Positions 7,500-36,324 of a stretch of 64,000 bases of DNA are shown here, in pieces (the first letter of the stretch is position 1; each line of letters begins with the position of its first letter). Source of the stretch: Catalimonadaceae bacterium JC749 (GTDB lineage Bacteria; Bacteroidota; Bacteroidia; Cytophagales; Cyclobacteriaceae); NCBI GenBank assembly GCA_021730635.1, contig JAJNNC010000007.1, forward strand, positions 25,100 through 89,099. Reading direction: 5' to 3'. The notes under the pieces were generated by a model, which saw only the letters and a program-made list of their open reading frames with translations, did no database searches and was not told the origin of the DNA. The position numbers were made by a program, and so were the translations under genes.

Positions 7500-7500
7500 T

Positions 7501-9603: not shown

Positions 9604-9609
9604 AAGCTT

Positions 9610-12600
9610 ATGTGGGGAATTATACGACATAGCATCTTCCTGGTCTTTGCAGTGGTCTTCAGTTTTCACAGCCAGGCTCAGCATTTTCCTGTACAAGTTG
9701 GTATCCAACTGCCCCCTCCTCATTCATTGTATCTTTCCGATTATGTAATACCTGGTAGTCACCGGCTTTCTGTGAACATCCTTCTTACAGAACTGGATCG
9801 TATCAATTACCCGGTTAGACTGCGAATCACTATAGAAGGAAATGGTATCCATATGCGTACCCGCGAAGGTTTTATGCCATCTCCTATGGAATTGCAGGGA
9901 GGTATGCTGGAAGTTTTGTCCGCTTCAGAGCTGGCCCCCTATTTTGATCCTCTCAATCTGCAAGTAAGTGGAGCAAACCAACATCAATTCACAAGAACAA
10001 CCCAGTTGCCTGAAGGATTTTACCGTTTTTGTATAGAAGTGTTGGATTATTATACGGGCACAACGGTCTCTAACTTTGCTTGTGCCAATGCATGGTTAAT
10101 TCTTAATGAACCACCCATCATCAACGTACCTCAAGCCAACGCCAAAGTCCGCGCACAGGAACCACAGCACTTAATATTTCAATGGTCACCCCGGCATATG
10201 GGAAGCCCGAATGCTGGTTTTACAACAGAGTATGAACTAACACTAGTAGAACTATGGCCTTCCAACCGTGACCCAAACGATGCTATACGCAGTACACCTC
10301 CTGTCTTTCAGACTACTACTTTGAATACCACTTTCATCTATGGAGTTGCTGAACCTGCTTTGCTGCCTGGACGTGCCTATGCTTTCCGGGTAAGGGCAAA
10401 AAGTATGGCAGGCGTAGATAAGCTAGCGCTATTCAAAAATCAGGGATATAGTGAAACTATTATGTTTACCTATGGGGAAGAATGTAGCCAACTCCAGCAG
10501 GTACAAGCGGAAGCTTTGAGTGCCACCCGTATTAAACTATCATGGCCCTCTGCTCCAGTCCATACCGCTTACATAGTCCGCTATAGGGAAGCCGGTAGAC
10601 CTCGTGCTCACTGGTTTGAAGAAACTACCTACCTGAATGATTTTACAATCAATTCTTTGAAACCTGATACTGAGTATGAATACCAGGTGAAAGGACTATG
10701 CGGTACAGTGAATGGAGACTACACCCATAACACTAGTATCCGTACTTTATCCCGAACAGAAAATGAACTGGTATGTGGCAAACCTTTTTCATCTTATGAC
10801 CTAAGCAATCCACTGTTACTGAAACTACTTTTCATAGGCGACTATGTATATGCTGGCGACTTTGATGTACAATTAACGGAAGTATGGGGTAGTAATGGCT
10901 TATTTTCAGGAGAAGGTATTGCTGAAATGCCCCTGTTGAATATGGCCAGAGTCAAAGTTCGCTTTGAGGGCATACATGTCAACACAGACTACCGCCTCAT
11001 TGACGGAAATATTTATGCGCTGACTGACCCATCTGGCAATGGTATTCTGAATTTGGATGAAGAAAGCATAGTCAAAGTCAAAGAGAAGGTACCAGAAGGA
11101 ACTGTTGATAAAAATGCAAAGGCAATCACCATACCCTATTTTGTAGATTCAGTATATGTCAATGAGCAAGGACAGATTACAGTTGTTGACACGCTTGGAA
11201 AAGAAGCACTTTATAAACAGGAAACTCATGAAAAGACAGGAAAGAAGAAAGATACGCATCTGACCGATAGCAGTGGCAAGCGTTGGTCAGTTGATAAAGA
11301 AGGTAATGTATCCGAGACAGAGACCAACAATAATGCTGATGCTACTGCCCAGGAAAAGCTTCCTGCTGACACTTTACCTGCATTGCAGAAAGCACCTCTA
11401 TTAGTGGAATTTACCTCCGACGAACATCAGCGACAATACGGGTACGATCCACCCAGAGAAAACTATGCACCCGTCTTTTATCCCACACAATCGCTATTAG
11501 GAGAAACCTTTCCTATAGGGTACAAAGCCCTGTCCAATGGTCGACCAGAATACTTAACCGCTCAATGGCAAGGTGCCGACAGTTTGAGTAATTACATCAC
11601 TTATCAGGCAGGCAGTTTCATGGTCAATACTTCCGGACAAGCAAGAGAAGGTAAACAAAGTCTGACCCTAATTGGCCTGGGTGATCAAGCAGAAGAACAG
11701 CTAACGGCTTATCAGAAAATCATCAATACTGGGGGCAAGGAAGAAGAAGTCATCACAGGTGCGCTTCACCTGAGCAGCTATGACCCTATCTTGGAACAAC
11801 TTGTCATAATTCCGGTAAACGACATTCACAATCCCTATTCTGTTACCCATCTGCAAAACAAACTGACTGACATATACTCCCAGGCAGTCGTCAGTTGGCA
11901 GGTGACTGAAGAAACAGCACTTCAAATCAACTGGGATGAAAATGGAGATGAGAAAGTGGATGATGGATTTAGTGGAACCTTCTCTAATTACACCCTGGAG
12001 ATGAAGAATATCCTGAAGGCGTACAAGAAGGTAAAAGGTTTTGATGATGACAAGTATTACCTCTTTCTGGTAGCAGGCAGTGAAAGTGGCCAGAAACAAG
12101 GCTATATGCCTCGTAAACGACAGGCAGGTTTTATTTTCCTGGATGCTAACAAAAGCGAAGACGAATTCCTCACTACCATAGCCCATGAATTAGGACATGG
12201 TGCCTATCGCCTGGAACATATTTTCAAAGAGAAAGGCAGCACCCCAGGGCAGACTGATAATCTGATGGATTATCGTGGAGGTACTTTTCTGCACAAGTAC
12301 CAATGGGATTATATTCACAACCCTATTCATATGATTGCCCTTTTTCAGGATGATGATGACGGCGCTTATGTTTCTGAAACTTTTGCCCAGGAGGTAGGGA
12401 GGCTGATCAACTTTATTAAATGCGGTGTTCAGAGAAACAAACCTGTAGTTGACGTCTATTATGGATACCACCGTTACGATATCCCACTCAAAGATATTCT
12501 GGCTGTATTAGATTTTGGCAATAAAGGATATTTAGCCTCAGACGCATTTAAAGAAACCAAACTGCATGTGGGCATTAGCGATGGTTTACCAGGATCCAGC

Positions 12601-14715: not shown

Positions 14716-14726
14716 TTATATCAGCT

Positions 14727-15104
14727 ATGAAAACAGGATTTTACAGATCTCAGGTTGTTGAAGTGGAAGATAATTATGGCGGTGTAGTATATAAAAAAGC
14801 TGCGCACTATTACATCGCCTTTGTTGACTCCAACAACATATATATGATTCTTTCATCTTCAAAAGGTGAGCCTAAAATGTCTGTTTTATTATCATCTTCA
14901 GCATTGATGGATATTAAAGGATCTATTACGAAAGAGAATGAAATCACTGTTGAGATTACCTTTTACAATCCTTTCTTAAAAACCAGGGAAATATTTACAG
15001 GTAAAAAAGAAGGGGATAAGCTTTACTTGAAAGCGCATCGTGAAAACAAACCAGAAGAAATCTTTCTTGACGATGTTTTTGAGTATATCGGCACAGGAGA
15101 ATAG
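14727..15104 (+). CDS. Small paralog 1 of tandem family (125 aa); candidate cognate immunity protein
   Basis: MKTGFYRSQVVEVEDNYGGV...ITVEITFYNPFLKTREIFTGKKEGDKLYLKAHRENKPEEIFLDDVFEYIGTGE. It shares N-terminal (G.Y[RK]S..E.DNYG[GA]) and C-terminal (F.GK.EG..L.LK..R...PE.....YEY[IV]GT.E) motifs with 7 other ORFs in the array. Confidence 0.6.
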   Translation: MKTGFYRSQVVEVEDNYGGVVYKKAAHYYIAFVDSNNIYMILSSSKGEPKMSVLLSSSALMDIKGSITKENEITVEITFYNPFLKTREIFTGKKEGDKLYLKAHRENKPEEIFLDDVFEYIGTGE

Positions 15105-15121
15105 TCAGAAGCAATAACACT

Positions 15122-15520
15122 ATGAAAAAAGGACTGTATAAGAGCATCAGAGAGTCTAAAGGAGAAGACAATTACGGTGCTAATACCTTCACTGTTTACA
15201 TACGAAATTACTTACTATTTGTAGACAATGAGGTATTTAAATTTTCTATTAGTGGTTATAAGGAAAATTATGATGACCAAGAAGATTTAAGTAACCAACT
15301 AAAAAGTAATAAACATCCTTATCAAGGTCAGGTAGAAAGTTTTGATGAGAGTAAGATTAAATTTCATCTGATAGATAATTTCTTAGATGATAAGATCATT
15401 TTTGAGGGTAAAGCAGAAGGAGAGCGATTTCAGGTAAAGCGCTATAGAGTCTATAAGCCAGAAGCGATCATAGAAGAGACTTATGAATATGTGGGCACTC
15501 TTGAAGATCTTACCAGTTGA
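15122..15520 (+). CDS. Small paralog 2 (132 aa)
   Basis: MKKGLYKSIRESKGEDNYGANTF...KIIFEGKAEGERFQVKRYRVYKPEAIIEETYEYVGTLEDLTS. About 85% identical to the ORF at 18088. Confidence 0.6.
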   Translation: MKKGLYKSIRESKGEDNYGANTFTVYIRNYLLFVDNEVFKFSISGYKENYDDQEDLSNQLKSNKHPYQGQVESFDESKIKFHLIDNFLDDKIIFEGKAEGERFQVKRYRVYKPEAIIEETYEYVGTLEDLTS

Positions 15521-15585
15521 AAAAGATCAACCAATTGTATTAACAGACAAAATAGGGTTTGTCTGAACAAACTTGCTATACTTTT

Positions 15586-16020
15586 ATGAAAATAGGTATA
15601 TATAGAAGCATCAGAGAGTCTAAAGGAGAAGACAATTATGGGGCTAACGTCTTCACTATTTATAGACGCACTTACTTGGTTTTTATTGAAAATGAAGTGT
15701 TTAGCTTCTCCACCACCGGGTATAAGCATGATTTTGACGATCAAGATCAGGTAAGTAAACAACTAAAGAAAGCAAATGCAGTATTAAGGGATAAAGATTT
15801 TGTAATCCAGAATAAAATCTCTTCTCTTGAGGATGAAAATATCAAATTCTACTTAGTAGATAATTCTCTCCAAGACAAGATAATTTTTGAAGGTAAAGCA
15901 GAAGGTGAGCAACTTCATTTAAAACGTTACAGAGTTTCCCAGCCTGAAGCAGTCACAGAAAATACATATCAATACCTAGGCACATTGGAAGAAATGACCA
16001 GATTGTTTAAGGCGGATTAG
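15586..16020 (+). CDS. Small paralog 3 (~144 aa from ATG 15586; track ORF from 15559)
   Basis: MKIGIYRSIRESKGEDNYGANVF...IIFEGKAEGEQLHLKRYRVSQPEAVTENTYQYLGTLEEM. It is 100% identical to the ORF at 18525..18986. Confidence 0.6.
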   Translation: MKIGIYRSIRESKGEDNYGANVFTIYRRTYLVFIENEVFSFSTTGYKHDFDDQDQVSKQLKKANAVLRDKDFVIQNKISSLEDENIKFYLVDNSLQDKIIFEGKAEGEQLHLKRYRVSQPEAVTENTYQYLGTLEEMTRLFKAD

Positions 16021-16172
16021 AAGCTTTGATTGTTGCTGGAAACATATTAGTAAAAAGTAATCTGTTGCTTCTGTAAATCAAGAATAGATTTAATAAACCT
16101 TTTAATGAGATTAATTTCCAGCTCTTCAGGTAATCTTAAATAAATCAATTGATTCTTTGGAAGCTTTGATGA

Positions 16173-16610
16173 GTGAAGAAATTTTATTTCTTAAAAAGCC
16201 TGCTTTTATCTATTTACACCAATAAATTTCAAGTTATGATAGTGAAAAACGGGGTTTATTGTTCAATGCAAAAAAAGGAAACAGAAGAGGTTCATGGTGG
16301 TGTAACTTTACAAGACAGTTACTACCATCATATCTGCTTTTATTTTCCTGAAAACCTAGTTGGTTTTTATGGAGGTGGTAGGTTATGGTTTGCTCCTTAC
16401 TCCAGAAGAAACTTTAGATACAGCGGAGAAATTGGTAAGGTTGAAAATAATCAAATTGAATTTTCTATCATAGATCCTTACAACAATGATAAAATTCATT
16501 TTACTGGGATTGAAGAAGGAGATCAACTACAGATTAAAGCTGTAAGAAACAGTGAACCTGATAAAATATGGCTTGAAGGTACTTTTGAGTATATCGGCAC
16601 AGGAGAATAA
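16173..16610 (+). CDS. Small paralog 4 (start possibly ATG 16236)
   Basis: C-terminal family motif KIHFTGIEEGDQLQIKAVRNSEPDKIWLEGTFEYIGTGE. The N-terminus is divergent (MIVKNGVYCSMQKKETEEVHGG). Confidence 0.5.
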   Translation: MKKFYFLKSLLLSIYTNKFQVMIVKNGVYCSMQKKETEEVHGGVTLQDSYYHHICFYFPENLVGFYGGGRLWFAPYSRRNFRYSGEIGKVENNQIEFSIIDPYNNDKIHFTGIEEGDQLQIKAVRNSEPDKIWLEGTFEYIGTGE

Positions 16611-16725
16611 TTAACACTATGATCATATGATTGAAAGAAACTATCAAATTAAAAACGGATAATAGAACCATATTTCTCACAAGAATATCTGCAAAGTAAT
16701 ATTTGTTTTTGACACTTTCTTTCTA

Positions 16726-17151
16726 ATGTCTCTGTCAATCAAAATACCTAAAAATGGATTATTTAGATGCATAAAAGATACTTCTGTTGAGTATCATGCA
16801 TCTTCATTTTTTATTAATAAGGATGTTTCCTATTTAAAATTCCTTCCAAACGATCGCGCTATACTCTTTAGCAGAAGCGAGGGGAAGAGACCGGACGATG
16901 AAGATTATTTTAAATTGTATCATAAAATGGAATTACTTCAACAAGCTGAAACTTTTGAGATTTCAGCAGTTAGTTGGAATGACAATATTATCAAATTGCG
17001 ATCGCTTAGCAATGAAGCTTCCTACAATTGCATGCCTTCCTGTTTTATAGAATCTGCGTTAGCAGAAAAAAATATCACAGAACTACTGCTTGATAAGAAT
17101 CTCTCTAATGAAAAGCCTCATATCTATCAGTTTGTATCTGTAAAAAGCTGA
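16726..17151 (+). CDS. Small ORF in array, unrelated to the main paralog family (141 aa)
   Basis: MSLSIKIPKNGLFRCIKDTSVEYH... lacks the family N- and C-terminal motifs. Size, AT content and orientation match the array. Confidence 0.4.
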   Translation: MSLSIKIPKNGLFRCIKDTSVEYHASSFFINKDVSYLKFLPNDRAILFSRSEGKRPDDEDYFKLYHKMELLQQAETFEISAVSWNDNIIKLRSLSNEASYNCMPSCFIESALAEKNITELLLDKNLSNEKPHIYQFVSVKS

Positions 17152-17188
17152 CTTTTAAGTCCGAAACTTGTAACTCTAAGTTGATCAA

Positions 17189-17590
17189 ATGTTAAAAGAA
17201 TCTATATACCGAACTACAAAGGCACTTGAAAGCATAGATAATTATGGAGGTAATGCTTTCAAAAGATATGGCTATTGGTATTTATACTTTGACCAAAATA
17301 ATAAAGTATACCTATTTTCAACTGAAGGGTATGATCCTGAATTTGATGATAAAGAGCAGCTAAAAGAAATAGATAATCTCATAGAGTTTTCTCATCAAGG
17401 AGAATTAGTGGGTTTTTCGGATGGTAAAGTCAAGTTTTTTATCGACGAATTCTACTTTGGTAGGACTAATTATTCAGGAACTTTAAAAGGTAGCCAACTT
17501 AATTTAAAGCATTATAGAGAATCTGAGCCTGAAAAGGTAAATGATGAAATATATTTGTATATAGGCACTCCTGAAGATTATGTTTCATAG
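17189..17590 (+). CDS. Small paralog 6 (133 aa)
   Basis: MLKESIYRTTKALESIDNYGGNAF...NYSGTLKGSQLNLKHYRESEPEKVNDEIYLYIGTPEDYVS. Confidence 0.55.
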   Translation: MLKESIYRTTKALESIDNYGGNAFKRYGYWYLYFDQNNKVYLFSTEGYDPEFDDKEQLKEIDNLIEFSHQGELVGFSDGKVKFFIDEFYFGRTNYSGTLKGSQLNLKHYRESEPEKVNDEIYLYIGTPEDYVS

Positions 17591-17672
17591 ATTTTTTCAA
17601 CAAGTTCATTTGTTGGCCGGTGACTTACTTATCTGAAACAGATAGATTTAGATAACATGAGTTTTGACTGGA
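17590..17672 (+). pseudogene. Decayed remnant of the 3' end of the giant gene 9610..14715 (orphan toxin-tip fragment)
   Basis: 17619-17672 translates to ...YLKQIDLDNMSFDWTN*, against the gene C terminus ...NQINLDNMSFDWTI*. Weaker nucleotide similarity (ttcatttg.t.g.c.gg) extends back to ~17600, with in-frame stops. Confidence 0.55.
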
Positions 17673-17691
17673 CAAATTGACCATATTAGCT

Positions 17692-18069
17692 ATGAAAAAA
17701 GGATTTTACAGATCTCAGGTTGTTGAAGTGGAAGATAATTATGGCGGTGTTACATTTAATGTAAAAAGTTATTATCATCTGGGCTTTATTGATGAACAAA
17801 GAGTATTTTCAATATTGACTGAAGGTGAGGGTATCCCAAATTGGAGATTGTTTGAAAAAGAATTTGATAAACTTGATAATAAAGGAGCTATTACGATAGA
17901 GAATGAAAATACTGTTGAGATTACCTTTTACAATCCTTTCTTAAAAACCAGGGAAATATTTACAGGTAAAAAAGAAGGGGATAAGCTATACTTGAAAGCG
18001 CATCGTGAAAACAAACCGGACGAAGTCTTTCTTGACGATGTTTTTGAATATATCGGCACAGGAGAATAG
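17692..18069 (+). CDS. Small paralog 1' (duplicate of 14727 with diverged middle)
   Basis: MKKGFYRSQVVEVEDNYGGV...ITVEITFYNPFLKTREIFTGKKEGDKLYLKAHRENKPDEVFLDDVFEYIGTGE. The termini are near-identical to paralog 1 and the centre is different. Confidence 0.6.
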   Translation: MKKGFYRSQVVEVEDNYGGVTFNVKSYYHLGFIDEQRVFSILTEGEGIPNWRLFEKEFDKLDNKGAITIENENTVEITFYNPFLKTREIFTGKKEGDKLYLKAHRENKPDEVFLDDVFEYIGTGE

Positions 18070-18087
18070 TCAGTAATATTAAAAGTT

Positions 18088-18486
18088 ATGAAAAAAGGAG
18101 TATATAAGAGCATCAAAGATTCTGAAGGAGAAGACAATTACGGTGCTAACGCCTTCACTGTTTACATACGAAACTACTTACTATTTGTAGACGATGAGGT
18201 GTTTAAATTTTCTACCAGTAGTTCTGAAAAGAATTATGATGACCGTAAACATCTAAGCAAAAAGTTAATGAACAAAAAATACCCCTATCAAGGTCAGGTA
18301 GAAAGTTTTGATGAGAGTAAGATTAAATTTCATCTGATAGATAATTTCTTAGATGATAAGATCATCTTTGAGGGCAAAGCGGAAGGTGAGCGATTTCAGG
18401 TAAAGCGCTATAGAGTCTATAAGCCAGAAGCGATCATAGAAGAGACTTATGAATATGTGGGCACTCTTGAAGATCTTACCAGTTGA
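18088..18486 (+). CDS. Small paralog 2' (132 aa)
   Basis: Near-identical to 15122..15520 over the C-terminal two-thirds. Confidence 0.6.
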   Translation: MKKGVYKSIKDSEGEDNYGANAFTVYIRNYLLFVDDEVFKFSTSSSEKNYDDRKHLSKKLMNKKYPYQGQVESFDESKIKFHLIDNFLDDKIIFEGKAEGERFQVKRYRVYKPEAIIEETYEYVGTLEDLTS

Positions 18487-18551
18487 AAAAGATCAACCAA
18501 TTGTATTAACAGACAAAATAGGGTTTGTCTGAACAAACTTGCTATACTTTT

Positions 18552-18986
18552 ATGAAAATAGGTATATATAGAAGCATCAGAGAGTCTAAAGGAGAAGACA
18601 ATTATGGGGCTAACGTCTTCACTATTTATAGACGCACTTACTTGGTTTTTATTGAAAATGAAGTGTTTAGCTTCTCCACCACCGGGTATAAGCATGATTT
18701 TGACGATCAAGATCAGGTAAGTAAACAACTAAAGAAAGCAAATGCAGTATTAAGGGATAAAGATTTTGTAATCCAGAATAAAATCTCTTCTCTTGAGGAT
18801 GAAAATATCAAATTCTACTTAGTAGATAATTCTCTCCAAGACAAGATAATTTTTGAAGGTAAAGCAGAAGGTGAGCAACTTCATTTAAAACGTTACAGAG
18901 TTTCCCAGCCTGAAGCAGTCACAGAAAATACATATCAATACCTAGGCACATTGGAAGAAATGACCAGATTGTTTAAGGCGGATTAG
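18552..18986 (+). CDS. Small paralog 3' (identical copy of 15586..16020)
   Basis: Identical protein. Identical antisense ORFs in the track (15481..15762 and 18447..18728) confirm identity at nucleotide level. Confidence 0.6.
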   Translation: MKIGIYRSIRESKGEDNYGANVFTIYRRTYLVFIENEVFSFSTTGYKHDFDDQDQVSKQLKKANAVLRDKDFVIQNKISSLEDENIKFYLVDNSLQDKIIFEGKAEGEQLHLKRYRVSQPEAVTENTYQYLGTLEEMTRLFKAD

Positions 18987-25928: not shown

Positions 25929-28900
25929 TCACTGCTTCGTCAACCATTCCACAATTCCTTTCAGGCTTACAGAGATTTCTTCCATTTGTTCTACTGCTTT
26001 TTCAATACCATTGTTACCATAACCATTAGCCCGCTGATGTTTGAAGAAAATTGCTTTGATCTCATTCCAGCGTACTTTTTCTGTATCATCAAGTTCATTC
26101 ATCAGCTCTTTGAACTTCAACAGGTTGGCTTCCGCACCGGAAGTAAGGGTCTGGGCTTCGCTCTCATAGTGAGAAAAAATGAGCGTGTGCAGTTCCTCCT
26201 TATTCGTCACCGGCATTACCTTTTCAGCTATTTTATTCATATCCCGATAAGACCCTTGTAGTTTAAATGGCGGTTCAGCACGGTAGGCATCCGCTTGAGC
26301 GGCGGAGCGTATGTACTCCCTATTTACTTTCAGCACAGTATCGCGTACAGTTAGTAATTTGTGCAGAACAGCTACATATTCGCGCACTTCTTCTGCAGCA
26401 TGATGCACTTCAAATTCAACACCTTCCTGTTCACCTGTTTCAGCTATTTTTACAAGTGTATACACATCCCGCTGGCTTTTGCTGACCAGTTTGTTTAGCA
26501 CAGGATTGGAAGTGAGGCAGTTTTCCAGGTAACTCAGCTTAAATTCGGTAGCGGAGTCTCCAATGATATCACCCAGGTTATAAATATCTGCCCGGTTAGC
26601 CAGCATATCCGGAATCTGAAATTTCTCACCGCTTTCGGTATAAGGGTTACCGGCCATCACCACACAAACCTTTTTTCCACGAAAATCATAAGTTTTGCTT
26701 TTACCTTTGTAAACACCTTCTATTTTGCGCTGAGCATCACATAAAGAAATGAACTTTTGCAGAAATTCGGGGTTGCAGTGTTGGATATCATCCAGGTAGA
26801 TCATCACATTATCGCCCATTTCGAAGGCCAGGTTTAGCTTTTCGAGTTCTGCTCTGGCTCCAGCATTAGGCGCTTCAGCAGGATCTACTGCCGTGACAGC
26901 ATGACCAATGGCCGGACCATTTATCTTCATGAATACAATACCCAGTCGGTTGGCTAAGTATTCCATTAAGGTGGTCTTCCCATAACCCGGAGGAGAAATC
27001 AGTAGCAACATGCCCATCAGGTCTGTGCGTTTTCCTTCTCCTGCAATACCTATCTGCTTTGCCAGGTTAGCTCCGATTAGAGGCAGATACACTTTATCAA
27101 TGAGTTGATTTCTGACAAAAGATGTCATCACACGGGGTTTAAATGTCTCCAGCTGCAGCTCTTCCATATAGACAGTGACAAGATTGCGTTTTAACTGTTG
27201 AAAATCCTGAAAAGCAGGCACTATGTTTTTAGTATAATCATGCAGCTTTTCCATGAAATGATGATAATGCAGGGTATAAATACCTTCCCGAATTGCCGCA
27301 TGGCTACCTTGTAAACCGGAAATATTTTCTTGTAAAGAAGCTTCTACCACCTGCGCAGTCTTTAGCTTATCTGAAAACAACAAAAAAGCAGCTTCATGAA
27401 CAAATGCAGAACTCTCTCCGGTCTGGTGGACAAAAGAACGCATCCACTTTCTGATTAACTCAAACTGTAAAAAAGGATTTTCATATAAGCTATCGACTGA
27501 CTTTTGGTAATCAGCGGTAGCTTTACTTTGCTCCAGCTTTTTGAGAAACTTATCTTTTAGCACAATGGCAGCCTGATCCGTGACAAAATCATCGTCTCTG
27601 ATGAGTTCATGGAACAAATACTCACCAGCCATAGAAGCCATATGACCACTAAAAAGACCACTTTCCTGCATAAAATACTTGATCTCCTGGGTAATTGCAT
27701 TTTTTACCGTATCAAACTCATCACTTTCCGGAAAGACCTGTAGAATTGAGCCAGCTCCTTTGAGTTGGGAGTTCAGGACATTTTTACTACTTTTTTCCAG
27801 GTAATGTAACCAGAAAAACGCAGCACAAGTCCGAGCTTCAGAAGGATAGCGGAGTAAACCAGCCGTTAGGTAGATCTTCAGTACAGCGTTCAGAATCAAA
27901 GCGGCATCATGGTCGTGAACGCCTTTGATATAACCTTCTTCATAACGAGACGTCATCCTCTGCTGCAACAATTGGAATAAATCTTCAGATGAAAGGGCTG
28001 CTAAAGATCCCAGCGAATGGGATGAATTTCTTTGCTGTGCTGATAAAAAAATTTGATAGGCCAGATACTCTGCCCGGTATACTGCTGTATTTTCGCTGAC
28101 CAAAGCCTGATCCCACAGCGGTTTATATTCCTGAATTTTAACATGAGCAACAGGCGTATAGAAGTTAGTGCCGGTCAGATGAAAACACAGTGTTCCATCC
28201 TTCTCTATGGTAGTCAAAGCAAGAGTGGAAGTGTTGACTGAAAAAGGAAAATTACCCAGACGAATCACACTTTCTCCATCGACATAAAGTTCAGACTTAT
28301 CTTTCAACTGCCTGACAGCATCCTCCCGGGTAGCCTTCAGCCGACTTTGCAGATCGTCAGCCTTGACTGTATCTCCCAGTTTTTGTAATTCTCCAATGGT
28401 ATTACGCAATTTCTCGATCATCAGGTCGGAAGCGAAATAACCATTCAGTTCATTTACGTTAGTAAAAGTGCTGATCCTGTTTCGAATGGCTTTCAGGATA
28501 CGGTCGGCAGATTGTAGCAGGGTATTCGCACGTTTGTTTCTTGCCTCCACCAGCTGAACCTTACGCGACTCAAAAGCATTATATACCTCCTCCCGCTGCT
28601 GAGTGATCTGTTCGATAAATTCATCAAAATCAGCAAATTTTCCTTCCAGTTCCTCCAGTTGCACCATGAGTTTAGTGATATATTCATCACATTTTTCAGG
28701 GGTATCCGCCACGTCCATATAACCCAGTAAAGACTGGTTGATCAACTTCATCTGGGCATGAAACACTGCCTGACCTTCCTGGCTAAGCAATGCTTTTTTC
28801 CTATGCTTTAGCTGTGCCTTAATCTTATTGAGGTCAGAAAAAATAGCCGAGATACGATCTATGATACGTGTAGTCTGGGTAGCATCCTCAATTTCCAGAT

Positions 28901-30857
28901 TACTTACCACTTCAATGAGCATTTCCAGGTCAGAAGAAAACTGGGCAACATTCTTATCCAACTGATCTGCCTCTATCACTTTTTTCACTTCAGCGACAGC
29001 TTTTTCTAATGTTTTAATCTGTTGATAGTAAGGATGCAGCGCATCTTCCTGTAACAGAAACTGAACACTCTTCTGTGAGATTCGATCAGCTGATTCCTGA
29101 AGCAAATTTTCGTATTGACTTACCAGCGCTTCATCTACATAGCGGAGATCTTTCAGAGAAACCACTTCTCCCCGCAAAGTACGTAGTTGCGCCAAAGCAT
29201 TGACATACTCGTTGATATGTTCGGGCTTTCTTCTTTTAAGATCATTCACCAAACGCTCAGTGGCCTGAGTAACCTGCAATACCTGCTGGTTTGTATTCTC
29301 CCTAATGCGCTTTACCTTTTCATATTCATCAATAGCGGCAGAAGCCGTATCCCGGATTGCTGTCAATGGTTCATGGAGGGTAAAAGTATCCGGTTTGTCG
29401 AGCCAGTAATAAGCATCCAGGATGATAGTTGCCTGCTTTTGGAGATCCAGGTATATATTCTGGTAATTTTCACCTTTTTCCACCAGCATGATCAGCGCCT
29501 GACATTCAGCCATAGCTCGAACGATATCCTGATTGCCAACCTTCTGCAAATAAGAATCACTTTGAGAGGAAAAGATATAGTTAGGACCTACAAAAGGTGT
29601 TTGCCAGATGCGGATTGCATGATGTCTTTTGGGTTCAGATTCTGCCTTGAAGTAGCAGAGCTCCCCATTCTCAAAAATAGTATATCCATGACAAACGATA
29701 GGGTTCTTTACTGTTTGTTCAATAATATTATAAGGTAGCAGTTGATAAACCCCTAAAGTTTGCTGATAAAAAACATACAAGAAATCTTCTCCATTAGGAG
29801 AGGTTATTTTCTTTTCAAACCGCAGATCTGACAATTCATTATCAAACTGCTTGAATTCTCCTGTTTGCAGATAATAACCATTAGGAAATAAAATACCCTG
29901 CTCATCTGGTAACAGAATAGCAGCATCCTGAATGGCATCAATGCGTTTGACTTCCAGTAACTTAGCATTGTAAGCTATATACCGGTATGCCTTTTCCTGA
30001 TAGGGTCGGATTTTCAGCAAGATGATATTACCCAGGATAGCGTAATAGATTTCAGCATCATCTAAAGTCTGGTCTTTATCTTCTACTTCTTCACGATGAA
30101 TACCCTGACCACTAGCTGTATTGTCTTCTACTTTGATAGTCAGATCACCGCCAATGGTTTCTACAAAAACGCGGTCTTTGATAGAAATATGTGGAAACTT
30201 TCCATCCCTCTGATCATCACGGGTAGTACGTTGCCACACAAAATCATGTTGGGGTGGCAAGGTGAGTTCATGTTCGCTCCGGTTATCCAGATATACCAAC
30301 TCATCACCACTGATTTGCCACTTAAACGCTTTGATATCATTCAACCCTTTACCAATCTGAAAGACCATGTACAGATAGGATTCCTGTAACACAAAGCGAA
30401 TGAACCTGGTATTTTTATAGTACTTATACACTTTTTGAAATTCATCAACAAAAGCCGGATTTTGAATCAGGTCATATCCCAGTTCATGAAAGCTATGCTC
30501 CCGGTAGTCGTATAAACTGAAAACATCGGAAAGTGCTACCTGTGTTTTAAGACCCAAATGTACATTGTAGCCAAAAATGAAACGGGAACCCAGAGACACC
30601 ATATCCATAGGAATACAGTTATTGTGGGTATGAATTCTTTCTGTGGCAATGAGTGTGGTATCGATAGAACCAAATACTTTTTTCCGGACCTGGTTCAGCT
30701 CTTCCAAACGCTTTCGCAGTAAATTAGTATGCTGATGAAGCCGATTTTGAAGGATTTGATAAGTACTGCTTTCCAGCTGATTTTCCGGAGCTTTCTCTAT
30801 GATGCGTTTCTGATCAGACATAGTAGATGTGTAATAGTTCTGAAGGTAAATATTCAT
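25929..30857 (-). CDS. Giant (1642 aa) protein with MoxR/AAA_5-type AAA+ ATPase module near C-terminus; last gene of the pspA–flotillin operon
   Basis: Walker A LLLISPPGYGKTTLMEYL, Walker B MIYLDDIQ, sensor/Arg region VVMAGNPYTESGEKFQIPDMLANRADIY (MoxR-like). About 1200 aa of N-terminal helical/coiled-coil sequence without recognisable motifs. 60-nt gap to the flotillin gene. Confidence 0.7.
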   Translation of the reverse strand: MNIYLQNYYTSTMSDQKRIIEKAPENQLESSTYQILQNRLHQHTNLLRKRLEELNQVRKKVFGSIDTTLIATERIHTHNNCIPMDMVSLGSRFIFGYNVHLGLKTQVALSDVFSLYDYREHSFHELGYDLIQNPAFVDEFQKVYKYYKNTRFIRFVLQESYLYMVFQIGKGLNDIKAFKWQISGDELVYLDNRSEHELTLPPQHDFVWQRTTRDDQRDGKFPHISIKDRVFVETIGGDLTIKVEDNTASGQGIHREEVEDKDQTLDDAEIYYAILGNIILLKIRPYQEKAYRYIAYNAKLLEVKRIDAIQDAAILLPDEQGILFPNGYYLQTGEFKQFDNELSDLRFEKKITSPNGEDFLYVFYQQTLGVYQLLPYNIIEQTVKNPIVCHGYTIFENGELCYFKAESEPKRHHAIRIWQTPFVGPNYIFSSQSDSYLQKVGNQDIVRAMAECQALIMLVEKGENYQNIYLDLQKQATIILDAYYWLDKPDTFTLHEPLTAIRDTASAAIDEYEKVKRIRENTNQQVLQVTQATERLVNDLKRRKPEHINEYVNALAQLRTLRGEVVSLKDLRYVDEALVSQYENLLQESADRISQKSVQFLLQEDALHPYYQQIKTLEKAVAEVKKVIEADQLDKNVAQFSSDLEMLIEVVSNLEIEDATQTTRIIDRISAIFSDLNKIKAQLKHRKKALLSQEGQAVFHAQMKLINQSLLGYMDVADTPEKCDEYITKLMVQLEELEGKFADFDEFIEQITQQREEVYNAFESRKVQLVEARNKRANTLLQSADRILKAIRNRISTFTNVNELNGYFASDLMIEKLRNTIGELQKLGDTVKADDLQSRLKATREDAVRQLKDKSELYVDGESVIRLGNFPFSVNTSTLALTTIEKDGTLCFHLTGTNFYTPVAHVKIQEYKPLWDQALVSENTAVYRAEYLAYQIFLSAQQRNSSHSLGSLAALSSEDLFQLLQQRMTSRYEEGYIKGVHDHDAALILNAVLKIYLTAGLLRYPSEARTCAAFFWLHYLEKSSKNVLNSQLKGAGSILQVFPESDEFDTVKNAITQEIKYFMQESGLFSGHMASMAGEYLFHELIRDDDFVTDQAAIVLKDKFLKKLEQSKATADYQKSVDSLYENPFLQFELIRKWMRSFVHQTGESSAFVHEAAFLLFSDKLKTAQVVEASLQENISGLQGSHAAIREGIYTLHYHHFMEKLHDYTKNIVPAFQDFQQLKRNLVTVYMEELQLETFKPRVMTSFVRNQLIDKVYLPLIGANLAKQIGIAGEGKRTDLMGMLLLISPPGYGKTTLMEYLANRLGIVFMKINGPAIGHAVTAVDPAEAPNAGARAELEKLNLAFEMGDNVMIYLDDIQHCNPEFLQKFISLCDAQRKIEGVYKGKSKTYDFRGKKVCVVMAGNPYTESGEKFQIPDMLANRADIYNLGDIIGDSATEFKLSYLENCLTSNPVLNKLVSKSQRDVYTLVKIAETGEQEGVEFEVHHAAEEVREYVAVLHKLLTVRDTVLKVNREYIRSAAQADAYRAEPPFKLQGSYRDMNKIAEKVMPVTNKEELHTLIFSHYESEAQTLTSGAEANLLKFKELMNELDDTEKVRWNEIKAIFFKHQRANGYGNNGIEKAVEQMEEISVSLKGIVEWLTKQ

Positions 30858-30916
30858 ACCGGATGCCAGCTACCATAAAAGAGTTGGGAGTGCGCATCCA
30901 GTATATTGTTTTAACT

Positions 30917-33085
30917 TTAAGTATGAATATTTTTTACCGGTTCATGGGCCATGCCGGTGGTACGTGCCATGTCAAGTAATTTACCCAGACTGTCTTTTGC
31001 TTCTTTCTGATCGGTTTGCCCCATCATTTTGAGCAATAAGGCGGAAACTGTCAGATTTTTCATGTCATCAGACGTTACACCGAACTGATCAATGAATTTT
31101 CGGAAATTTTCTTTGAAAGAACCACCTCCGTTGGTAGTACTAAAGAACGTATCCTTCACATCCATCAGCGTACTGCTATTGCGTACCATACCCTCAATAG
31201 CCTTTCCTTTAGTAATAGAACCCATGATCTGCTCGAAGAACATAGTTTCTCCACCAATGATATCAATATTAGCAGCTCTCAATGCTTCGGCAATCACCTT
31301 AGCCTGGGCTTCAGAGATATCTTTCTGGATATTGATCCTGGCCAGTTCAATGATCTTTTCTGTGTCCAGTTTCAGCTTGAACTCTTCATGCTCGCGACCT
31401 ACGCCATCCAGTTCCTGCATGGCTTTTGCTTTTTCACGGATACCATCCGCTTCAGCTTTGAATTTCTCATTCATGATGCGAGCTTCCATCATTCCTTGTT
31501 TTTCGCTGGCCGTTGCTTTGATTTCTACTACCTCAGCCTCAGATTTACCCTGCTCTCTGCCCACTTTGGCTTTCACCAACCCCAGTTTCTCATCAGCTTC
31601 TGCCTGTGCCTGGCTAGTAGCCCGGATTTTGTTAGCTTCTGCTTCAGCCGTAGCTTCAATGACATAGGCTTCTGCATGACCTTCTTTCTCACGGGCAGCT
31701 GCTTTGGCTTCCATGACCTGTGCTTCGGACAAACCGATAGAAGCCTTTTGAGCAGCTTCAGCATCTGCCATGATTTTCATGGCTTTGGCTTTAAAATCAG
31801 CCGCATCTTGCTCAGCCTGCGCATCAATCGTAATTTGTTTGGCTTTATGCTCAGAAGCCTGTTTGGCAGCTTCAGCTGCTTTGATCTCTTTGACCAGTGC
31901 TTCCTGCGCATCTCGTTCGGCATTGACCAGTGCTACTTGTTTGCTACGTTCTGCTTCGGCCATAGCACGGGTATCTTTAATCTTTTCTTCTTCGGTTACA
32001 GTAGCTTTTTCTACCATCACACGCTCCCGGATGACCTCCTGAATATTCTTACGTTCTTCCTCTAGTGATTTTTCTTTTTCAATGCGAGCCAGTTCTACCA
32101 CTCTTTCTTTTTCAGTAGCTTCCAGCAAACGAGCTTGTTCCACGCGCTCCTGTTCAATGGCATCAGTACGTTCCTTATTACGCTGTGCTACCAATACCTG
32201 CCGTTCTTTATTCTGTTCGGCTACGCCTACTTCTTCTTCTGTAGCGATACGAGCCTGCTCTGCTTTTTTATGTTCTTCCTGTCTTACTTTTTCCCGTTCG
32301 GCTGACTCTCTGGAACGGATGTTAGAAATTTCCCGCTGCTGTTTTTCCTGCTTTTCCACTAATTGCTTTTCCAACTCAAGGATGGTTTCTTCTGCTTCTA
32401 CATCCTGCTTCTTTAGTGTTTTTTTCTTTTCATTCTCGATAAGATTGGCCTTCACTTTTTGCTGGGCAGTCAGGTCAATGATTTTTTTAATACCTTCGGA
32501 ATCCAGAATATTATCGCTGTTAAGATGCTCCAGCGGCGTCTGTTCCAGATAATCAATGGCACAATCGTCCAGAATATAACCGTTCAGATCGGTCCCGATC
32601 TCTTCCAGTATTTTTTCTTTGAACTGACTTCGGGAGTTGTACAATTCTACAAATTCAAAGTGTTTACCTACAGTTTTCAAAGCTTCTGAGAATTTGGCAT
32701 CGAACAAAAGTTGTAACTGATCAGGATCAGAAGCTCTTTTGCAACCAATGGATTGCGCTACATGGACCACATCTTCTTTGGTTTTGTTGACCCGGATAAA
32801 GAACGACACTTTGATGTCAGCCCGAAGGTTATCTTTACAGATGAGTCCATCTTTACCCATACGGGAGATTTCCATAGATTTCAGAGTAATGTCCATCACT
32901 TCCAGTTTATGGAGAACAGGCACTACAAAAATCCCTGAAAAGGAGATTTTTACATCTCCCAAGCCGGTGCGAACCAATGCTTCTCCCTGCACCGCCTTCT
33001 GGTACATTTTTATAAGAAGAGAAAGCAGTCCGATAAACAAGACTACCCCGATGATGATGATAGCCCAAAGCATTTGTTTTTCCAT
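30917..33085 (-). CDS. Flotillin-like SPFH/Band-7 protein (YqiK family) with long EA-rich coiled-coil
   Basis: N-terminal TM (MLWAIIIIGVVLFIGLLSLLI), then an SPFH domain (GEALVRTGLGDVKISFSGIFVVPVLHKLEVMDITLKSMEI...), then a long E/A/K/Q-rich repeat region. Confidence 0.85.
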   Translation of the reverse strand: MEKQMLWAIIIIGVVLFIGLLSLLIKMYQKAVQGEALVRTGLGDVKISFSGIFVVPVLHKLEVMDITLKSMEISRMGKDGLICKDNLRADIKVSFFIRVNKTKEDVVHVAQSIGCKRASDPDQLQLLFDAKFSEALKTVGKHFEFVELYNSRSQFKEKILEEIGTDLNGYILDDCAIDYLEQTPLEHLNSDNILDSEGIKKIIDLTAQQKVKANLIENEKKKTLKKQDVEAEETILELEKQLVEKQEKQQREISNIRSRESAEREKVRQEEHKKAEQARIATEEEVGVAEQNKERQVLVAQRNKERTDAIEQERVEQARLLEATEKERVVELARIEKEKSLEEERKNIQEVIRERVMVEKATVTEEEKIKDTRAMAEAERSKQVALVNAERDAQEALVKEIKAAEAAKQASEHKAKQITIDAQAEQDAADFKAKAMKIMADAEAAQKASIGLSEAQVMEAKAAAREKEGHAEAYVIEATAEAEANKIRATSQAQAEADEKLGLVKAKVGREQGKSEAEVVEIKATASEKQGMMEARIMNEKFKAEADGIREKAKAMQELDGVGREHEEFKLKLDTEKIIELARINIQKDISEAQAKVIAEALRAANIDIIGGETMFFEQIMGSITKGKAIEGMVRNSSTLMDVKDTFFSTTNGGGSFKENFRKFIDQFGVTSDDMKNLTVSALLLKMMGQTDQKEAKDSLGKLLDMARTTGMAHEPVKNIHT

Positions 33086-33500
33086 TGTTGTTAGTTTAGT
33101 GATAAAATTGAAATAGCAGTCAGGAGGCAGAAGTAAGAATTGCTTGTATACAACTTTTCGAAAGTTTACTCACTTCTAATAGTTTAATTTCTTCCACAAA
33201 GGAGTTATATCTCAGATCTTCTGAAAGAATAAGCTCATATCTTACTTCTTCCAAAGAACCTTGTGCGATGTCTAGAAAGCGTACTTTAACTTGTCCGCCT
33301 CTTTTGCAGAACCCTTCCGCAATGTTGGCAGGTAGTGATACGGTAGCTCTTCGTATTTGGCTTGCAAGACCGTATTTTTCATCAGATGGGAATGATCTAG
33401 TTTTCTGATAAATAGCAGCACTATTTTATGCACTTTTCTCCAAACTATTAGTCCTGGAAGCTTTTAGACTTCTGCATTTATTTTGTATTCTGACGTAAGG

Positions 33501-34130
33501 TCAAATTACATAAGGTTCTACGAGATAAATATTGCGATCTTGCTGATATTCTATCACCATGCCAGTATCACCGCTTTGGACGGATTTTCCCTCTGGTGTT
33601 TGAATATTTAAGAGTAAAGGAGCACCACTTGTATCAATTTTGGCTTGTCCTATTTTTTTACTACTCGCCTGGGAGGTAACTATACAGATTTTACCGATCA
33701 GTGACATATTCCGCTCCATATCATTGTCCAGTTGGCCAAACAGGCGAATAAAAGGCTGTGTCAGAAACTTAGCAATAAAAAGGCTTATGATTAAATTTGG
33801 AATCAGAAGCAGAAGCGAAACCCAAAACGATTCATTACCAAGATAGTAGTTTCCCATGACGGAGATCACCCAGATTGGAATGATCAGAAAAGTCATGAAT
33901 ACCATGAAAGGTACCTGGCCCAAGTTGAAGAACCCCAACACATGATTGAGCCAGGATACTGAAAACTCTCCATCAACGTCCGCATCTGTCTCCAATTCAA
34001 TATCAAGATCAAAAAAATCAATATCGATGGCTCCCAGCATCACTACTACCCAATAGACGAGTACGAATACCAGTAGGATAGTAGGAATCAAATTGGGCGC
34101 TGAGATAGCGGCGTTTAACAGATCATTCAT
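33501..34130 (-). CDS. YqiJ/NfeD-like inner-membrane protein (partner of flotillin)
   Basis: Taken from the internal ATG (34128-34130), giving MNDLLNAAISAPNLIPTILLVFVLVYWVVVMLGAIDIDFFDLDIELETDADVDGE.... It has TM helices plus a C-terminal OB-like segment. The start lies 4 nt after the pspA stop. The longer track ORF would overlap pspA by 150 nt. Confidence 0.5.
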   Translation of the reverse strand: MNDLLNAAISAPNLIPTILLVFVLVYWVVVMLGAIDIDFFDLDIELETDADVDGEFSVSWLNHVLGFFNLGQVPFMVFMTFLIIPIWVISVMGNYYLGNESFWVSLLLLIPNLIISLFIAKFLTQPFIRLFGQLDNDMERNMSLIGKICIVTSQASSKKIGQAKIDTSGAPLLLNIQTPEGKSVQSGDTGMVIEYQQDRNIYLVEPYVI

Positions 34131-34854
34131 TTTCGCTATTGTTGCTTTTCTCAGGTAATCCCAATCTTTTTTTGAGCTCCAGCAGTTTATGGGAAGCCCC
34201 TGTATCCTGTTCCGTTTCCAGGGCACGATCAATCTCCTCATCAATCGTTTTGGCTTCCGCAGCAATTTCTCCATAAGACTGTGCGATCGCTTCTTCCTGC
34301 TCTACTTTAATTTTCATACGCTCCAGCATGGCTACTGTGCTGGAAGTGTCAATATTGGCTAGCTGCTTATTCATCGTCTTGGTAGCAGAACTTACCCTCA
34401 TACGGGCTTTCAGTGTACGCAATTCGTTCTCCCAGGTATTGATATTAGATTTCAGGGTATCAATATTTTTCTCCAGATGCTGTACGGAGATGTCATATTT
34501 CTGCTGCTCAATGCGCAGACGGGAAACTTCTTTTTCCGACTGTTCTTTTCGGGTCAGGGCTTCTGTTGCCAATCTGTCGGCTTCAGTCTGAGAAATTTCA
34601 CCCTTTTCCGATTTATGAAGCAACAGAATTGCTTTTTGCTCATAATCTTTGGCGCGTTCTTCCTGCGCACGAAGGTCATTTTTCGTCCGGATAGACAGCG
34701 CTTTGACTTCTGCCAAGGCTTGTAAAGCTTTATCCATCTCAATTTTCATATCCCGGATTCCCTGTTCAGTCATCTTGATAGGGTCTTCCAGTTTGTTAAT
34801 GGCGTTGTGTGCTTCTGCCTGACCAACTTTAAATAATCTGCTGAAAATATTCAT
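34123..34854 (-). CDS. pspA: Phage shock protein A / IM30 family (ESCRT-III superfamily)
   Basis: MNIFSRLFKVGQAEAHNAINKLEDPIKMTEQGIRDM... aligns with E. coli PspA [36 protein letters not shown]. Coiled-coil throughout. Confidence 0.85.
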   Translation of the reverse strand: MNIFSRLFKVGQAEAHNAINKLEDPIKMTEQGIRDMKIEMDKALQALAEVKALSIRTKNDLRAQEERAKDYEQKAILLLHKSEKGEISQTEADRLATEALTRKEQSEKEVSRLRIEQQKYDISVQHLEKNIDTLKSNINTWENELRTLKARMRVSSATKTMNKQLANIDTSSTVAMLERMKIKVEQEEAIAQSYGEIAAEAKTIDEEIDRALETEQDTGASHKLLELKKRLGLPEKSNNSENE

Positions 34855-34934
34855 GATTTGTTACTTTATGTGTTTTAAAAGATAGATTAGAGGTATGGGT
34901 ACAAGTCTATGCTCGTACAAAATATATAGTCTTA

Positions 34935-35330
34935 TTAAGCTCTTGAAATTTTAATGATTTCTTCCGAAAACTCGCTGAGCAAAAGTCCCAGTGAGTTAAA
35001 AGAGGCCTCCAACTCATTCAGGTCCAGCGTATCTAATTGCAGTGTATCTCTGAAAATGACCCGCTTTCCCGTTTGATCCAATACAAAGGCTCCATGGATA
35101 ATATCCCGGTTTTTTTGTAAAAGCAGTTTGTACACTTCCATAGACTCATTTTTTATTTCACAAATAAATTGTTCCATAATGAGGATAGGATCTGCACAGC
35201 CTAACACCATTTTATTCACCCCAGTACTCTCATTGTGAATGAGAAAGATTCCTTCCCTTTCATGCTCATACTCAATGGAGTAGTTCAGTGTCAGGAGATA
35301 CTGCTTAACTTTCAAAAACGAAGGATTCAT
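34935..35330 (-). CDS. Small cytoplasmic protein, possibly YbjN-like (131 aa), first gene of pspA operon
   Basis: ORF immediately upstream of pspA on the same strand. The YbjN assignment is a weak guess from size and pattern. Confidence 0.35.
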   Translation of the reverse strand: MNPSFLKVKQYLLTLNYSIEYEHEREGIFLIHNESTGVNKMVLGCADPILIMEQFICEIKNESMEVYKLLLQKNRDIIHGAFVLDQTGKRVIFRDTLQLDTLDLNELEASFNSLGLLLSEFSEEIIKISRA

Positions 35331-35526
35331 AGTTGTGTAGCTTTTATTACTTTTAAGTCAGCTTCTATCAATTTTACTTTTCTGCCAAAGATAGATGATG
35401 CTGGTTAGGCTATCTATAAAATCTGTCTTTGGGTTGCTGTCTTATTATTGGCTTTTAGGTTATATTTACGTATGTTTGCTCAAAATGTTAGCATAACTCA
35501 TAATATTAGCAATATTTTTTATTAAC

Positions 35527-36324
35527 ATGTCTATTATCGGAAAAAATATAAAGAAAATAAGAGCCGTCAAGAAAATCAGCCAAAGCGATTTTGCTGATCT
35601 TTTCAACTTATCCAGAGGCAGTGTCGGCTCTTATGAAGAAGGACGGGCAGAGCCGAAAATAGACACCATCATACGGATTGCCAATTATTTTAGCTTATCC
35701 ATTGACCTACTGCTAACCAAAGAACTGACTGTTAATGAACTCTATAGATTTGATATTTTCAAAGAGGAATTTCATCATAAAGCGGCAGAAAAAATAATTA
35801 TTGAAGACAAAGATCAAAACAAAGAGGATACCCCTCTGGTCACCAGGGAAAGCTACCTGGAATATATTGTCAGTTTTCAGAATAAGGATTATATCAACCG
35901 TTTGCCTTATGTAAAACTTCCTAATACGCAGCATGAAAAATCCAGGGCTTTTGAAGTGCAGGATGATGCTATGGAATTTAACAGTAAGGGATTACTTATA
36001 GGAGATATTTTATCCTGCTCCCTGCTCACCAAAGAAGACTATGCCCGGCTTCCTTTGGGAGAGGTATATGTGATTATTACTGATAAAGGTATTTATACCA
36101 GGCGGCTCAGCCACCACAAACCAAAACTTTTGTTTGAGGCAGATAATCCTAATTATGATGCGTTAGAAATTTCAGAGACCGAGCTATTAGAACTCTGGAA
36201 AGTAGAAGGATTTTATAGTACCATCCTTAAACCTCCTTCCAGGATGGAAGAACGTATGGCTATTCTGGAAAAGAAGGTAGCCGTATTGGAGAAAATAATA
36301 CAAAAATCACAGGTTGCTTCCTGA
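35527..36324 (+). CDS. XRE-family HTH transcriptional regulator with C-terminal S24/LexA-like (non-catalytic) domain
   Basis: N-terminal HTH (IKKIRAVKKISQSDFADLFNLSRGSVGSYEEGRAEPKIDTIIRIANYF). The C-terminal VQDDAMEFNSKGLLIGDIL...VYVIITDKGIYTRRL resembles the S24 fold but has DAM where the catalytic motif is G(D)SM. Divergently transcribed from the pspA operon. Confidence 0.6.
   Translation: MSIIGKNIKKIRAVKKISQSDFADLFNLSRGSVGSYEEGRAEPKIDTIIRIANYFSLSIDLLLTKELTVNELYRFDIFKEEFHHKAAEKIIIEDKDQNKEDTPLVTRESYLEYIVSFQNKDYINRLPYVKLPNTQHEKSRAFEVQDDAMEFNSKGLLIGDILSCSLLTKEDYARLPLGEVYVIITDKGIYTRRLSHHKPKLLFEADNPNYDALEISETELLELWKVEGFYSTILKPPSRMEERMAILEKKVAVLEKIIQKSQVAS

Follow-up and report, generated by a model that had tools for sequence, protein, structure and literature searches.

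The stretch of DNA analysed here (the window) comprises 64,000 nucleotides (nt) of contig JAJNNC010000007.1 from Catalimonadaceae bacterium JC749, a member of the Bacteroidota. It carries a cluster of six genes that combines a YqiJ-like membrane protein, a flotillin and a giant AAA+ protein with PspA, a small CesT-like protein and a divergent XRE/S24 regulator. An initial annotation of the window had placed these genes in the order given below, and the list of open reading frames (ORFs) confirms all six at the coordinates that it gave. The features of the locus are as follows, with lengths in amino acids (aa).

35527-36324, plus strand: divergent XRE/S24 regulator, 265 aa, with an XRE-type helix-turn-helix (HTH) domain at aa 8-62 (Pfam HTH_3, 1.3e-10) and an S24/LexA-like domain at aa ~126-218 (Peptidase_S24, 4.5e-6)
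35479-35491 and 35497-35509: tandem operator-like sites, motif read on the minus strand
34935-35330, minus strand: CesT/Tir-like (YbjN-like) small chaperone-fold protein, 131 aa
34123-34854, minus strand: PspA/IM30 (ESCRT-III superfamily) protein, 243 aa
33501-34130, minus strand: YqiJ/YuaF-type (NfeD2-like) membrane protein, 209 aa counted from the conserved Met
33086-33500, minus strand: spacer of 415 nt between yqiJ and the flotillin gene, with a 23S_rRNA_IVP pseudogene inside
30917-33085, minus strand: YqiK-type flotillin, 722 aa
25929-30857, minus strand: giant cytoplasmic AAA+ protein, ORF of 1642 aa; probable start at 30821, giving 1630 aa
29601-30656, minus strand: beta-propeller of the giant (aa 68-419), the core of DUF3686, with about 28 strands in the secondary structure of the model
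28287-29552, minus strand: spectrin-repeat-like helical bundles of the giant (aa 436-857), including DUF7902
26088-27110, minus strand: MoxR-type AAA+ module of the giant (aa ~1250-1590)

On the minus strand, cesT and pspA are separated by 80 nt, the start of yqiJ overlaps the stop of pspA by 8 nt, and the giant gene lies 59 nt from the flotillin gene, a distance of 95 nt if its likely start is used. All gaps had been reported as 4-80 nt, which fails at the yqiJ-flotillin junction. Three-frame translation of the 415 nt at this junction revealed a frameshifted, 5′-truncated (N-terminally truncated) gene for a four-helix-bundle protein of the 23S_rRNA_IVP family, and its repaired translation matches PF05635 (1.1e-25). 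This pseudogene is an insertion and lies outside the system proper. Promoter and terminator scans gave background levels only and carry little information in a genome of the Bacteroidota.

At least 565 homologous loci came out of a genome scan. We retained 80 of them, and these belong to the Bacteroidota, Planctomycetota, Verrucomicrobiota, Desulfobacterota, Kiritimatiellota, Omnitrophota and Clostridia. Six-frame ORFs of these loci were searched with the window proteins and flanking ORFs were clustered; loci with enough upstream DNA were counted as informative. In 70/73 informative loci the giant gene directly follows a flotillin gene of the same strand, and the two ORFs overlap or abut in many of them (for example L056, L066 and L068). 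Likewise, yqiJ lies upstream of flotillin in 60/62 informative loci. The distribution of pspA is different. It is found upstream in 22 of the 28 informative Bacteroidota loci and in 0/30 from other phyla (Planctomycetota, Verrucomicrobiota, Desulfobacterota, Clostridia and Kiritimatiellota), all 30 of which have the giant gene beside yqiJ and flotillin. Where pspA is present, cesT accompanies it in 20/22 loci and the XRE/S24 gene is present and divergent in 21/22. The order yqiJ, flotillin, giant is thus an invariant core, whilst the XRE/S24 gene and the cesT-pspA pair are a Bacteroidota-only addition. Moreover, gene order and strands repeat in the 22 Bacteroidota genome loci and in four metagenome loci, which show the same six-gene layout as far as their contigs extend, so the cluster is a conserved unit and not a chance adjacency. 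The PspA-seeded metagenome scan yielded 6 loci, too few for statistics. An annotated example with the same layout and precomputed Pfam matches is found in Tunicatimonas pelagia.

The synteny by which the initial annotation had wanted its proposal judged therefore divides: the giant gene stays with flotillin across phyla, but with pspA in one phylum only, and the description of the giant as dedicated to PspA has to be dropped, with pspA missing upstream in 30/30 non-Bacteroidota and 6/28 Bacteroidota loci. The loci without pspA keep a giant that is ~47-50% identical with invariant motifs, so a PspA encoded in the operon cannot be needed for its conserved function. In a neighbour-joining tree the giants group largely by phylum, with PspA-containing operons only within Bacteroidota clades, and the linkage is therefore old. 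Among the 80 loci no further conserved neighbour family was found on either side; the Bax-inhibitor-like gene downstream and the sensor kinase gene upstream in the window are not kept with the cluster.

Some loci depart from this layout. In the Bacteroidota locus L011, pspA (16003-16749, minus) is found on the strand opposite to the giant gene and ~1.1 kb downstream of it, a rearranged variant. At the flotillin-giant junction, unrelated small genes occur in L002, L007, L009, L024, L036, L059, L063, L072, L078 and others. By eye, and with no Pfam scan, these include DUF559-, GxxExxY-, RAYT (REP-associated transposase)- and ParE-type genes and an esterase. We considered these junction ORFs as a missed sixth component and rejected them as heterogeneous and unrelated. 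It seems that small selfish or accessory genes have repeatedly settled at the junctions of the operon.

The AAA+ domain had been thought the only recognisable module of the giant. Pfam identifies two more, DUF3686 at aa 47-484 (1.8e-188) and DUF7902 at aa 605-688 (9.7e-29). The length of 1642 aa holds for the longest ORF, which opens at 30857, 12 codons upstream of the start in the public model, but the database entry for the identical protein has 1630 aa. The probable start is therefore 30821, as the first column that is invariant in the homologues is Met13.

Two AlphaFold models were made from 50-sequence alignments, one of aa 1-900 (predicted local distance difference test score, pLDDT, 83.9) and one of aa 861-1642 (pLDDT 85.3). 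As the initial annotation had suggested might be the case, structure prediction brought out further domains, namely the beta-propeller and the spectrin-like repeats. An N-terminal helix (aa 28-62) precedes the propeller, which Foldseek matches to those of Elp1, CyRPA, prolyl oligopeptidase and YncE with a probability of ~1.0. The helical bundles are followed by a small beta domain and a helical domain (aa ~860-1240) and then by the AAA+ module. No specific MIT domain was found in the giant, the middle domain at aa ~860-1240 having had no fold search of its own. By hydrophobicity the giant has no transmembrane (TM) segment, against one in flotillin and three in the YqiJ-like protein.

The assignment of the ATPase to the MoxR type is supported by structure. 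Its AAA+ fold has its nearest matches in CbbQ and NorQ, which are MoxR proteins, and in dynein and midasin. It has the AAA_5-type fold with the helix-2 and pre-sensor-1 insertions of MoxR proteins and a beta-hairpin preceding sensor-1 (AGNP), and belongs to the MoxR/dynein/midasin clade rather than to the classical AAA clade of Vps4. The Walker A (SPPGYGKTT), Walker B (LDDIQH), AGNP and PDMLxNRxD motifs are invariant in 79 homologues from seven phyla; the motor is therefore under selection. Walker B reads hhhhDD, not the usual DE, at aa 1356-1357 (window 26787-26792).

The giant belongs to a family of more than 4611 clusters at 90% identity. Its N-terminal half occurs only in proteins of 1600-2036 aa with the same layout (381 representatives at 50% clustering, E < 1e-30). 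Giants from outside the Bacteroidota carry variable C-terminal TPR, ankyrin or low-complexity tails. These extras measure 150-380 residues in L018, L026, L029 and L058 (Planctomycetota, Desulfobacterota and Verrucomicrobiota) and look by eye like TPR in the case of L026 and like ankyrin repeats in that of L029, the other extended giants having low-complexity helices.

The two invariant partners of the giant are membrane proteins. The YqiJ-like protein combines three TM (hydrophobic) segments with an acidic loop and an OB-like domain at its C-terminus. Searched alone with phmmer against the PDB it gave no match. A profile of 35 orthologues, compared with E. coli YqiJ by hhalign, bears out its family (96.7%, E 4.4e-10); the sole PDB match of this profile is B. 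subtilis YuaF (2k14, E 0.64), and two orthologues reach the YqiJ_N cut-off. In the flotillin, a single TM segment at aa 7-25 is followed by an SPFH/Band_7 domain at aa 33-170, by a long coiled coil rich in E, A and K and by a domain at the C-terminus. At full length it matched nothing in Pfam, NCBIfam or the PDB sequences, probably because of the low-complexity coiled coil. The isolated N-terminus matches Band_7 at 6e-14 and BLASTP aligns the protein with E. coli YqiK (5e-51, 29% identity over 461 aa), in agreement with its original naming as a flotillin/SPFH protein. SPFH relatives of flotillin form large cup- or cage-shaped membrane oligomers. Some Pontibacter and Hymenobacter genomes encode two paralogous flotillins of the same type on one contig (P0158/P0160, P0209/P0212, P0213/P0221), and in locus L002, from Pontibacter, the triad occurs without pspA. 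These observations suggest that the module has been duplicated, the PspA add-on belonging to one copy and not to the other.

The families assigned to the other three genes are confirmed by Pfam. The CesT-like protein matches PF22550 (CesT_Tir_1) over its full length at 1.3e-53 and YbjN at 2.5e-9; CesT_Tir_1 and DUF7902 are Pfam families that now cover two of the cluster's parts. PspA matches PF04012 (PspA_IM30) at 3.7e-44 and solved Vipp1/PspA structures at ~1e-14. In alignment, the C-terminus of PspA shows a conserved amphipathic motif, [DE]xLxxLKxxLG[LIM]. We considered this motif as a specific handle for the ATPase and rejected it, given that a PspA encoded outside the operon (L086) has it too.

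The S24 domain of the regulator had been called serine-less, and this is correct. We aligned the window regulator and its 21 orthologues to an E. coli LexA sequence entered by hand, using the GDSM motif of S24 peptidases for register. The window protein reads DDAME at GDSM and has lost both residues of the Ser-Lys dyad of self-cleaving LexA/CI-type S24 repressors, Ser to Ala and the general-base Lys to Arg. Of the 22 regulators, 16 have Glu at the nucleophile position, three have Ala, one has Asp and two have Ser (20/22 without Ser); at the general-base position 20 have Arg and none has Lys. By sequence, the S24-like domain is a conserved pseudo-protease. As it is LexA-like without the protease dyad, it probably serves for dimerisation or as a sensor.

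A 13-nt motif, CTA[ACT]N6T[TG]AG, which was first found as a direct repeat, is common to the divergent intergenic regions. There are usually two copies at 18-nt spacing adjoining the regulator start, and in the window they lie just upstream of the start codon. The 22 orthologous regions (from loci L003-L073; 5.8 kb) hold 35 copies, where shuffled sequence gives 3.6 +/- 2.0, an approximately 10-fold excess, and the density across whole loci is 0.38 per kb. The motif is a likely operator, and the regulator is likely an XRE repressor, predicted to bind these conserved CTA-N-TAG operators.

The initial annotation knew of no description of this system. One exists: the exact architecture is given, from comparative genomics, by Ravi, Anantharaman, Aravind, Gennaro et al. 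(mSystems 2024, PMC11237479; bioRxiv 2020) in their section 19 and Table S3, where the Dokdonia donghaensis entry ANH61663.1 shows the full arrangement including a divergent "cHTH+Protease". The window has the CesT-pspA adjacency, the three-TM YqiJ/YuaF-type protein, the Band-7/flotillin protein, the beta-propeller-coiled-coil-AAA+ protein and the divergent HTH and protease-like regulator of that operon class, with identical gene content, order and orientation and no architectural difference. The same authors report that abbreviated flotillin-YqiJ(-AAA+) operons are more widespread, compare other PspA/Snf7-linked AAA+ ATPases with Snf7/Vps4 in the preceding section, and draw the same contextual inference as the reading favoured below (PMC11237479). 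The locus is therefore real and widely conserved but already described, and the window is one more instance. What is added here is the quantification of core and add-on, the structural assignment to the MoxR clade, the spectrin-like repeats, the loss of the S24 dyad and the operator motif.

Several better-known systems resemble parts of the cluster. The NfeD2-SPFH2 pairs yqiJ-yqiK of E. coli and yuaF-floT of B. subtilis have the same order, with the NfeD-like gene first and flotillin second; a NfeD-like gene upstream of flotillin on the same strand is found in the window, with its 415-nt insert, and in 60 loci. However, the window flotillin is ~170 aa longer, and yqiJ-yqiK of E. coli is followed by sibD/ibsD instead of a giant ATPase gene, pspA being unlinked. 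PspA is likewise co-operonic with an SPFH protein in B. subtilis pspA-ydjGHI, where the SPFH protein recruits PspA to the membrane (PMC8581546). There the partners are YdjG and YdjH rather than YqiJ, no CesT-like or AAA+ gene is present, and YdjI belongs to another SPFH subfamily. HflK/C-FtsH offers a further likeness, as an SPFH assembly that works with a dedicated AAA+ machine at the inner membrane. FtsH, however, is an AAA protease of the classical clade that is anchored in the membrane and enclosed at its periplasmic side, whereas the giant is soluble, of MoxR type and without a protease domain, and would act from the cytoplasmic side. Compared with the MoxR proteins CbbQ, NorQ and RavA, the giant is ~5 times larger and differs in its propeller, its spectrin-like arm and its Walker B DD.

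Taken together, we favour, with a probability of roughly 55%, the reading that the locus is a flotillin-centred AAA+ remodelling module for membrane maintenance, to which the Bacteroidota have added PspA. The core would consist of the three-TM YqiJ/NfeD2-like protein, the membrane-anchored YqiK-type flotillin and the soluble giant of ~1630 aa, all co-transcribed. The giant joins a beta-propeller and a long spectrin-like helical arm to a MoxR-type motor, and propellers and spectrin-like repeats, being typical docking and spacer modules, fit this role. Its AAA+ domains may assemble as a ring, with the arms and propellers docking onto the cytoplasmic face of a flotillin/YqiJ assembly. ATP hydrolysis would then remodel, assemble or disassemble that assembly, or a client held there, by analogy with FtsH inside HflK/C cages and with MoxR proteins acting on one dedicated partner complex. 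In the Bacteroidota, the core would have gained an inducible cesT-pspA pair upstream and a divergent, non-cleavable XRE repressor. PspA, perhaps kept unpolymerised by the CesT-like chaperone, may be brought to flotillin-marked membrane sites under envelope stress, where the same motor may act on it too, although such action cannot be its conserved role. Gene content, folds, conservation, the lost dyad and the operator motif are observed here; docking, substrate, oligomeric state and regulation are inferred.

A number of points count against this view. A single transcript of the window genes is presumed, and the 415-nt spacer could hold an internal promoter. Synteny is the one line of evidence that suggests docking of the giant on flotillin, and three informative loci (L015, L026, L040) have a giant gene with no flotillin within 7.6-10 kb. 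Walker B is DD rather than DE, and the rate of hydrolysis may therefore be unusual. Typical MoxR proteins are small and paired with a VWA partner, a partner that is absent here. Moreover, literature searches on DUF3686 and on the giant family under its database name turned up no experimental work.

The initial annotation had itself proposed the giant as an analogue of Vps4, and in its strong form this would make the giant a dedicated bacterial counterpart that disassembles or recycles PspA (ESCRT-III-like) polymers in membrane repair, flotillin being only a recruitment platform. An ESCRT-III-superfamily polymer is indeed encoded beside an AAA+ ATPase in the Bacteroidota form, the giant gene being co-operonic with pspA in the 22 genome and 4 metagenome loci; the [DE]xLxxLKxxLG motif of PspA loosely resembles MIM1; and a Vps4-like ATPase seems to be missing in bacteria according to a 2025 review (PMC7619361). 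We nevertheless find this reading unlikely. The AAA+ clade is another one, no specific MIT domain was found (with the scope given above for the middle domain), and the coupling to pspA (22/28 in Bacteroidota, 0/30 elsewhere) is lineage-restricted and not defining. The C-terminal motif is not specific, as the PspA of L086 shows, and the giants of PspA-containing operons are among the shortest and have no extra domain. Vps4-like activity may stand as a lineage-specific secondary role, but not as the conserved role of the giant. In a combined version, bacterial flotillin (SPFH) cages would have in the giant their first dedicated remodeller driven by ATP, which in Bacteroidota would also turn over cage-recruited PspA polymers as a non-homologous counterpart of Vps4. 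This is a tentative proposal, rather less likely than not.

It is also conceivable, if rather doubtful, that neither flotillin nor PspA is the substrate and that the giant is a MoxR-style maturation chaperone for another membrane client, such as a transporter or enzyme complex in flotillin microdomains, with flotillin and YqiJ as mere scaffold. Its nearest structural relatives would fit, CbbQ, NorQ and RavA each acting on one specific client complex, and the variable C-terminal extensions outside the Bacteroidota suggest variable partners. However, no client gene is conserved beside the triad in any phylum, flotillin and YqiJ are the only invariant partners, and the giant departs from the compact MoxR pattern (~300-500 aa with a VWA-domain partner gene) in its 1630-1642 aa and in its lack of a VWA adaptor, no further conserved neighbour family having been found in the 80 loci. 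Lastly, the family goes mostly under the name "DNA repair ATPase" in public databases, the Pfam description of DUF3686 reads "ATPase involved in DNA repair", and weak RuvB_N matches surround Walker A, from which one might take the giant for a DNA-repair or anti-phage defence ATPase in an incidental membrane-gene neighbourhood. This is highly improbable. The RuvB matches span ~50 residues at the P-loop, to which Cdc48 matches are likewise confined, and score 23.5 bits against a cut-off of 282; neither AlphaFold model has a nuclease or DNA-binding domain; and we found no paper that ties DUF3686 to repair. Homology to a restriction or defence ATPase, which the initial annotation had named as grounds for abandoning its proposal, did not emerge either, PADLOC giving a single noise-level match (mad8, E 0.0019). 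With no family match above threshold and an invariant linkage to membrane proteins, we rejected a repair or defence identity.

How flotillin assemblies and PspA/ESCRT-III-like polymers are dismantled or recycled is a standing question in bacteria. The giant family, with more than 4600 clusters in at least seven phyla and misnamed "DNA repair ATPase", is the most obvious candidate motor, and the first partner to consider is flotillin/YqiJ rather than PspA. Planctomycetota, Verrucomicrobiota and Clostridia provide natural PspA-less versions for comparison.

Elsewhere in the window, positions 2874-18986 of the plus strand contain three very large ORFs (1541, 703 and 1701 aa) with fn3 as their only matches. 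These are followed by a low-GC (0.31-0.33) tandem array of ~10 ORFs of 125-153 aa with no Pfam match, which includes equal-length pairs (15122-15520 and 18088-18486; 15559-16020 and 18525-18986). The arrangement looks like that of a large surface or secreted protein accompanied by an array of immunity-like cassettes.

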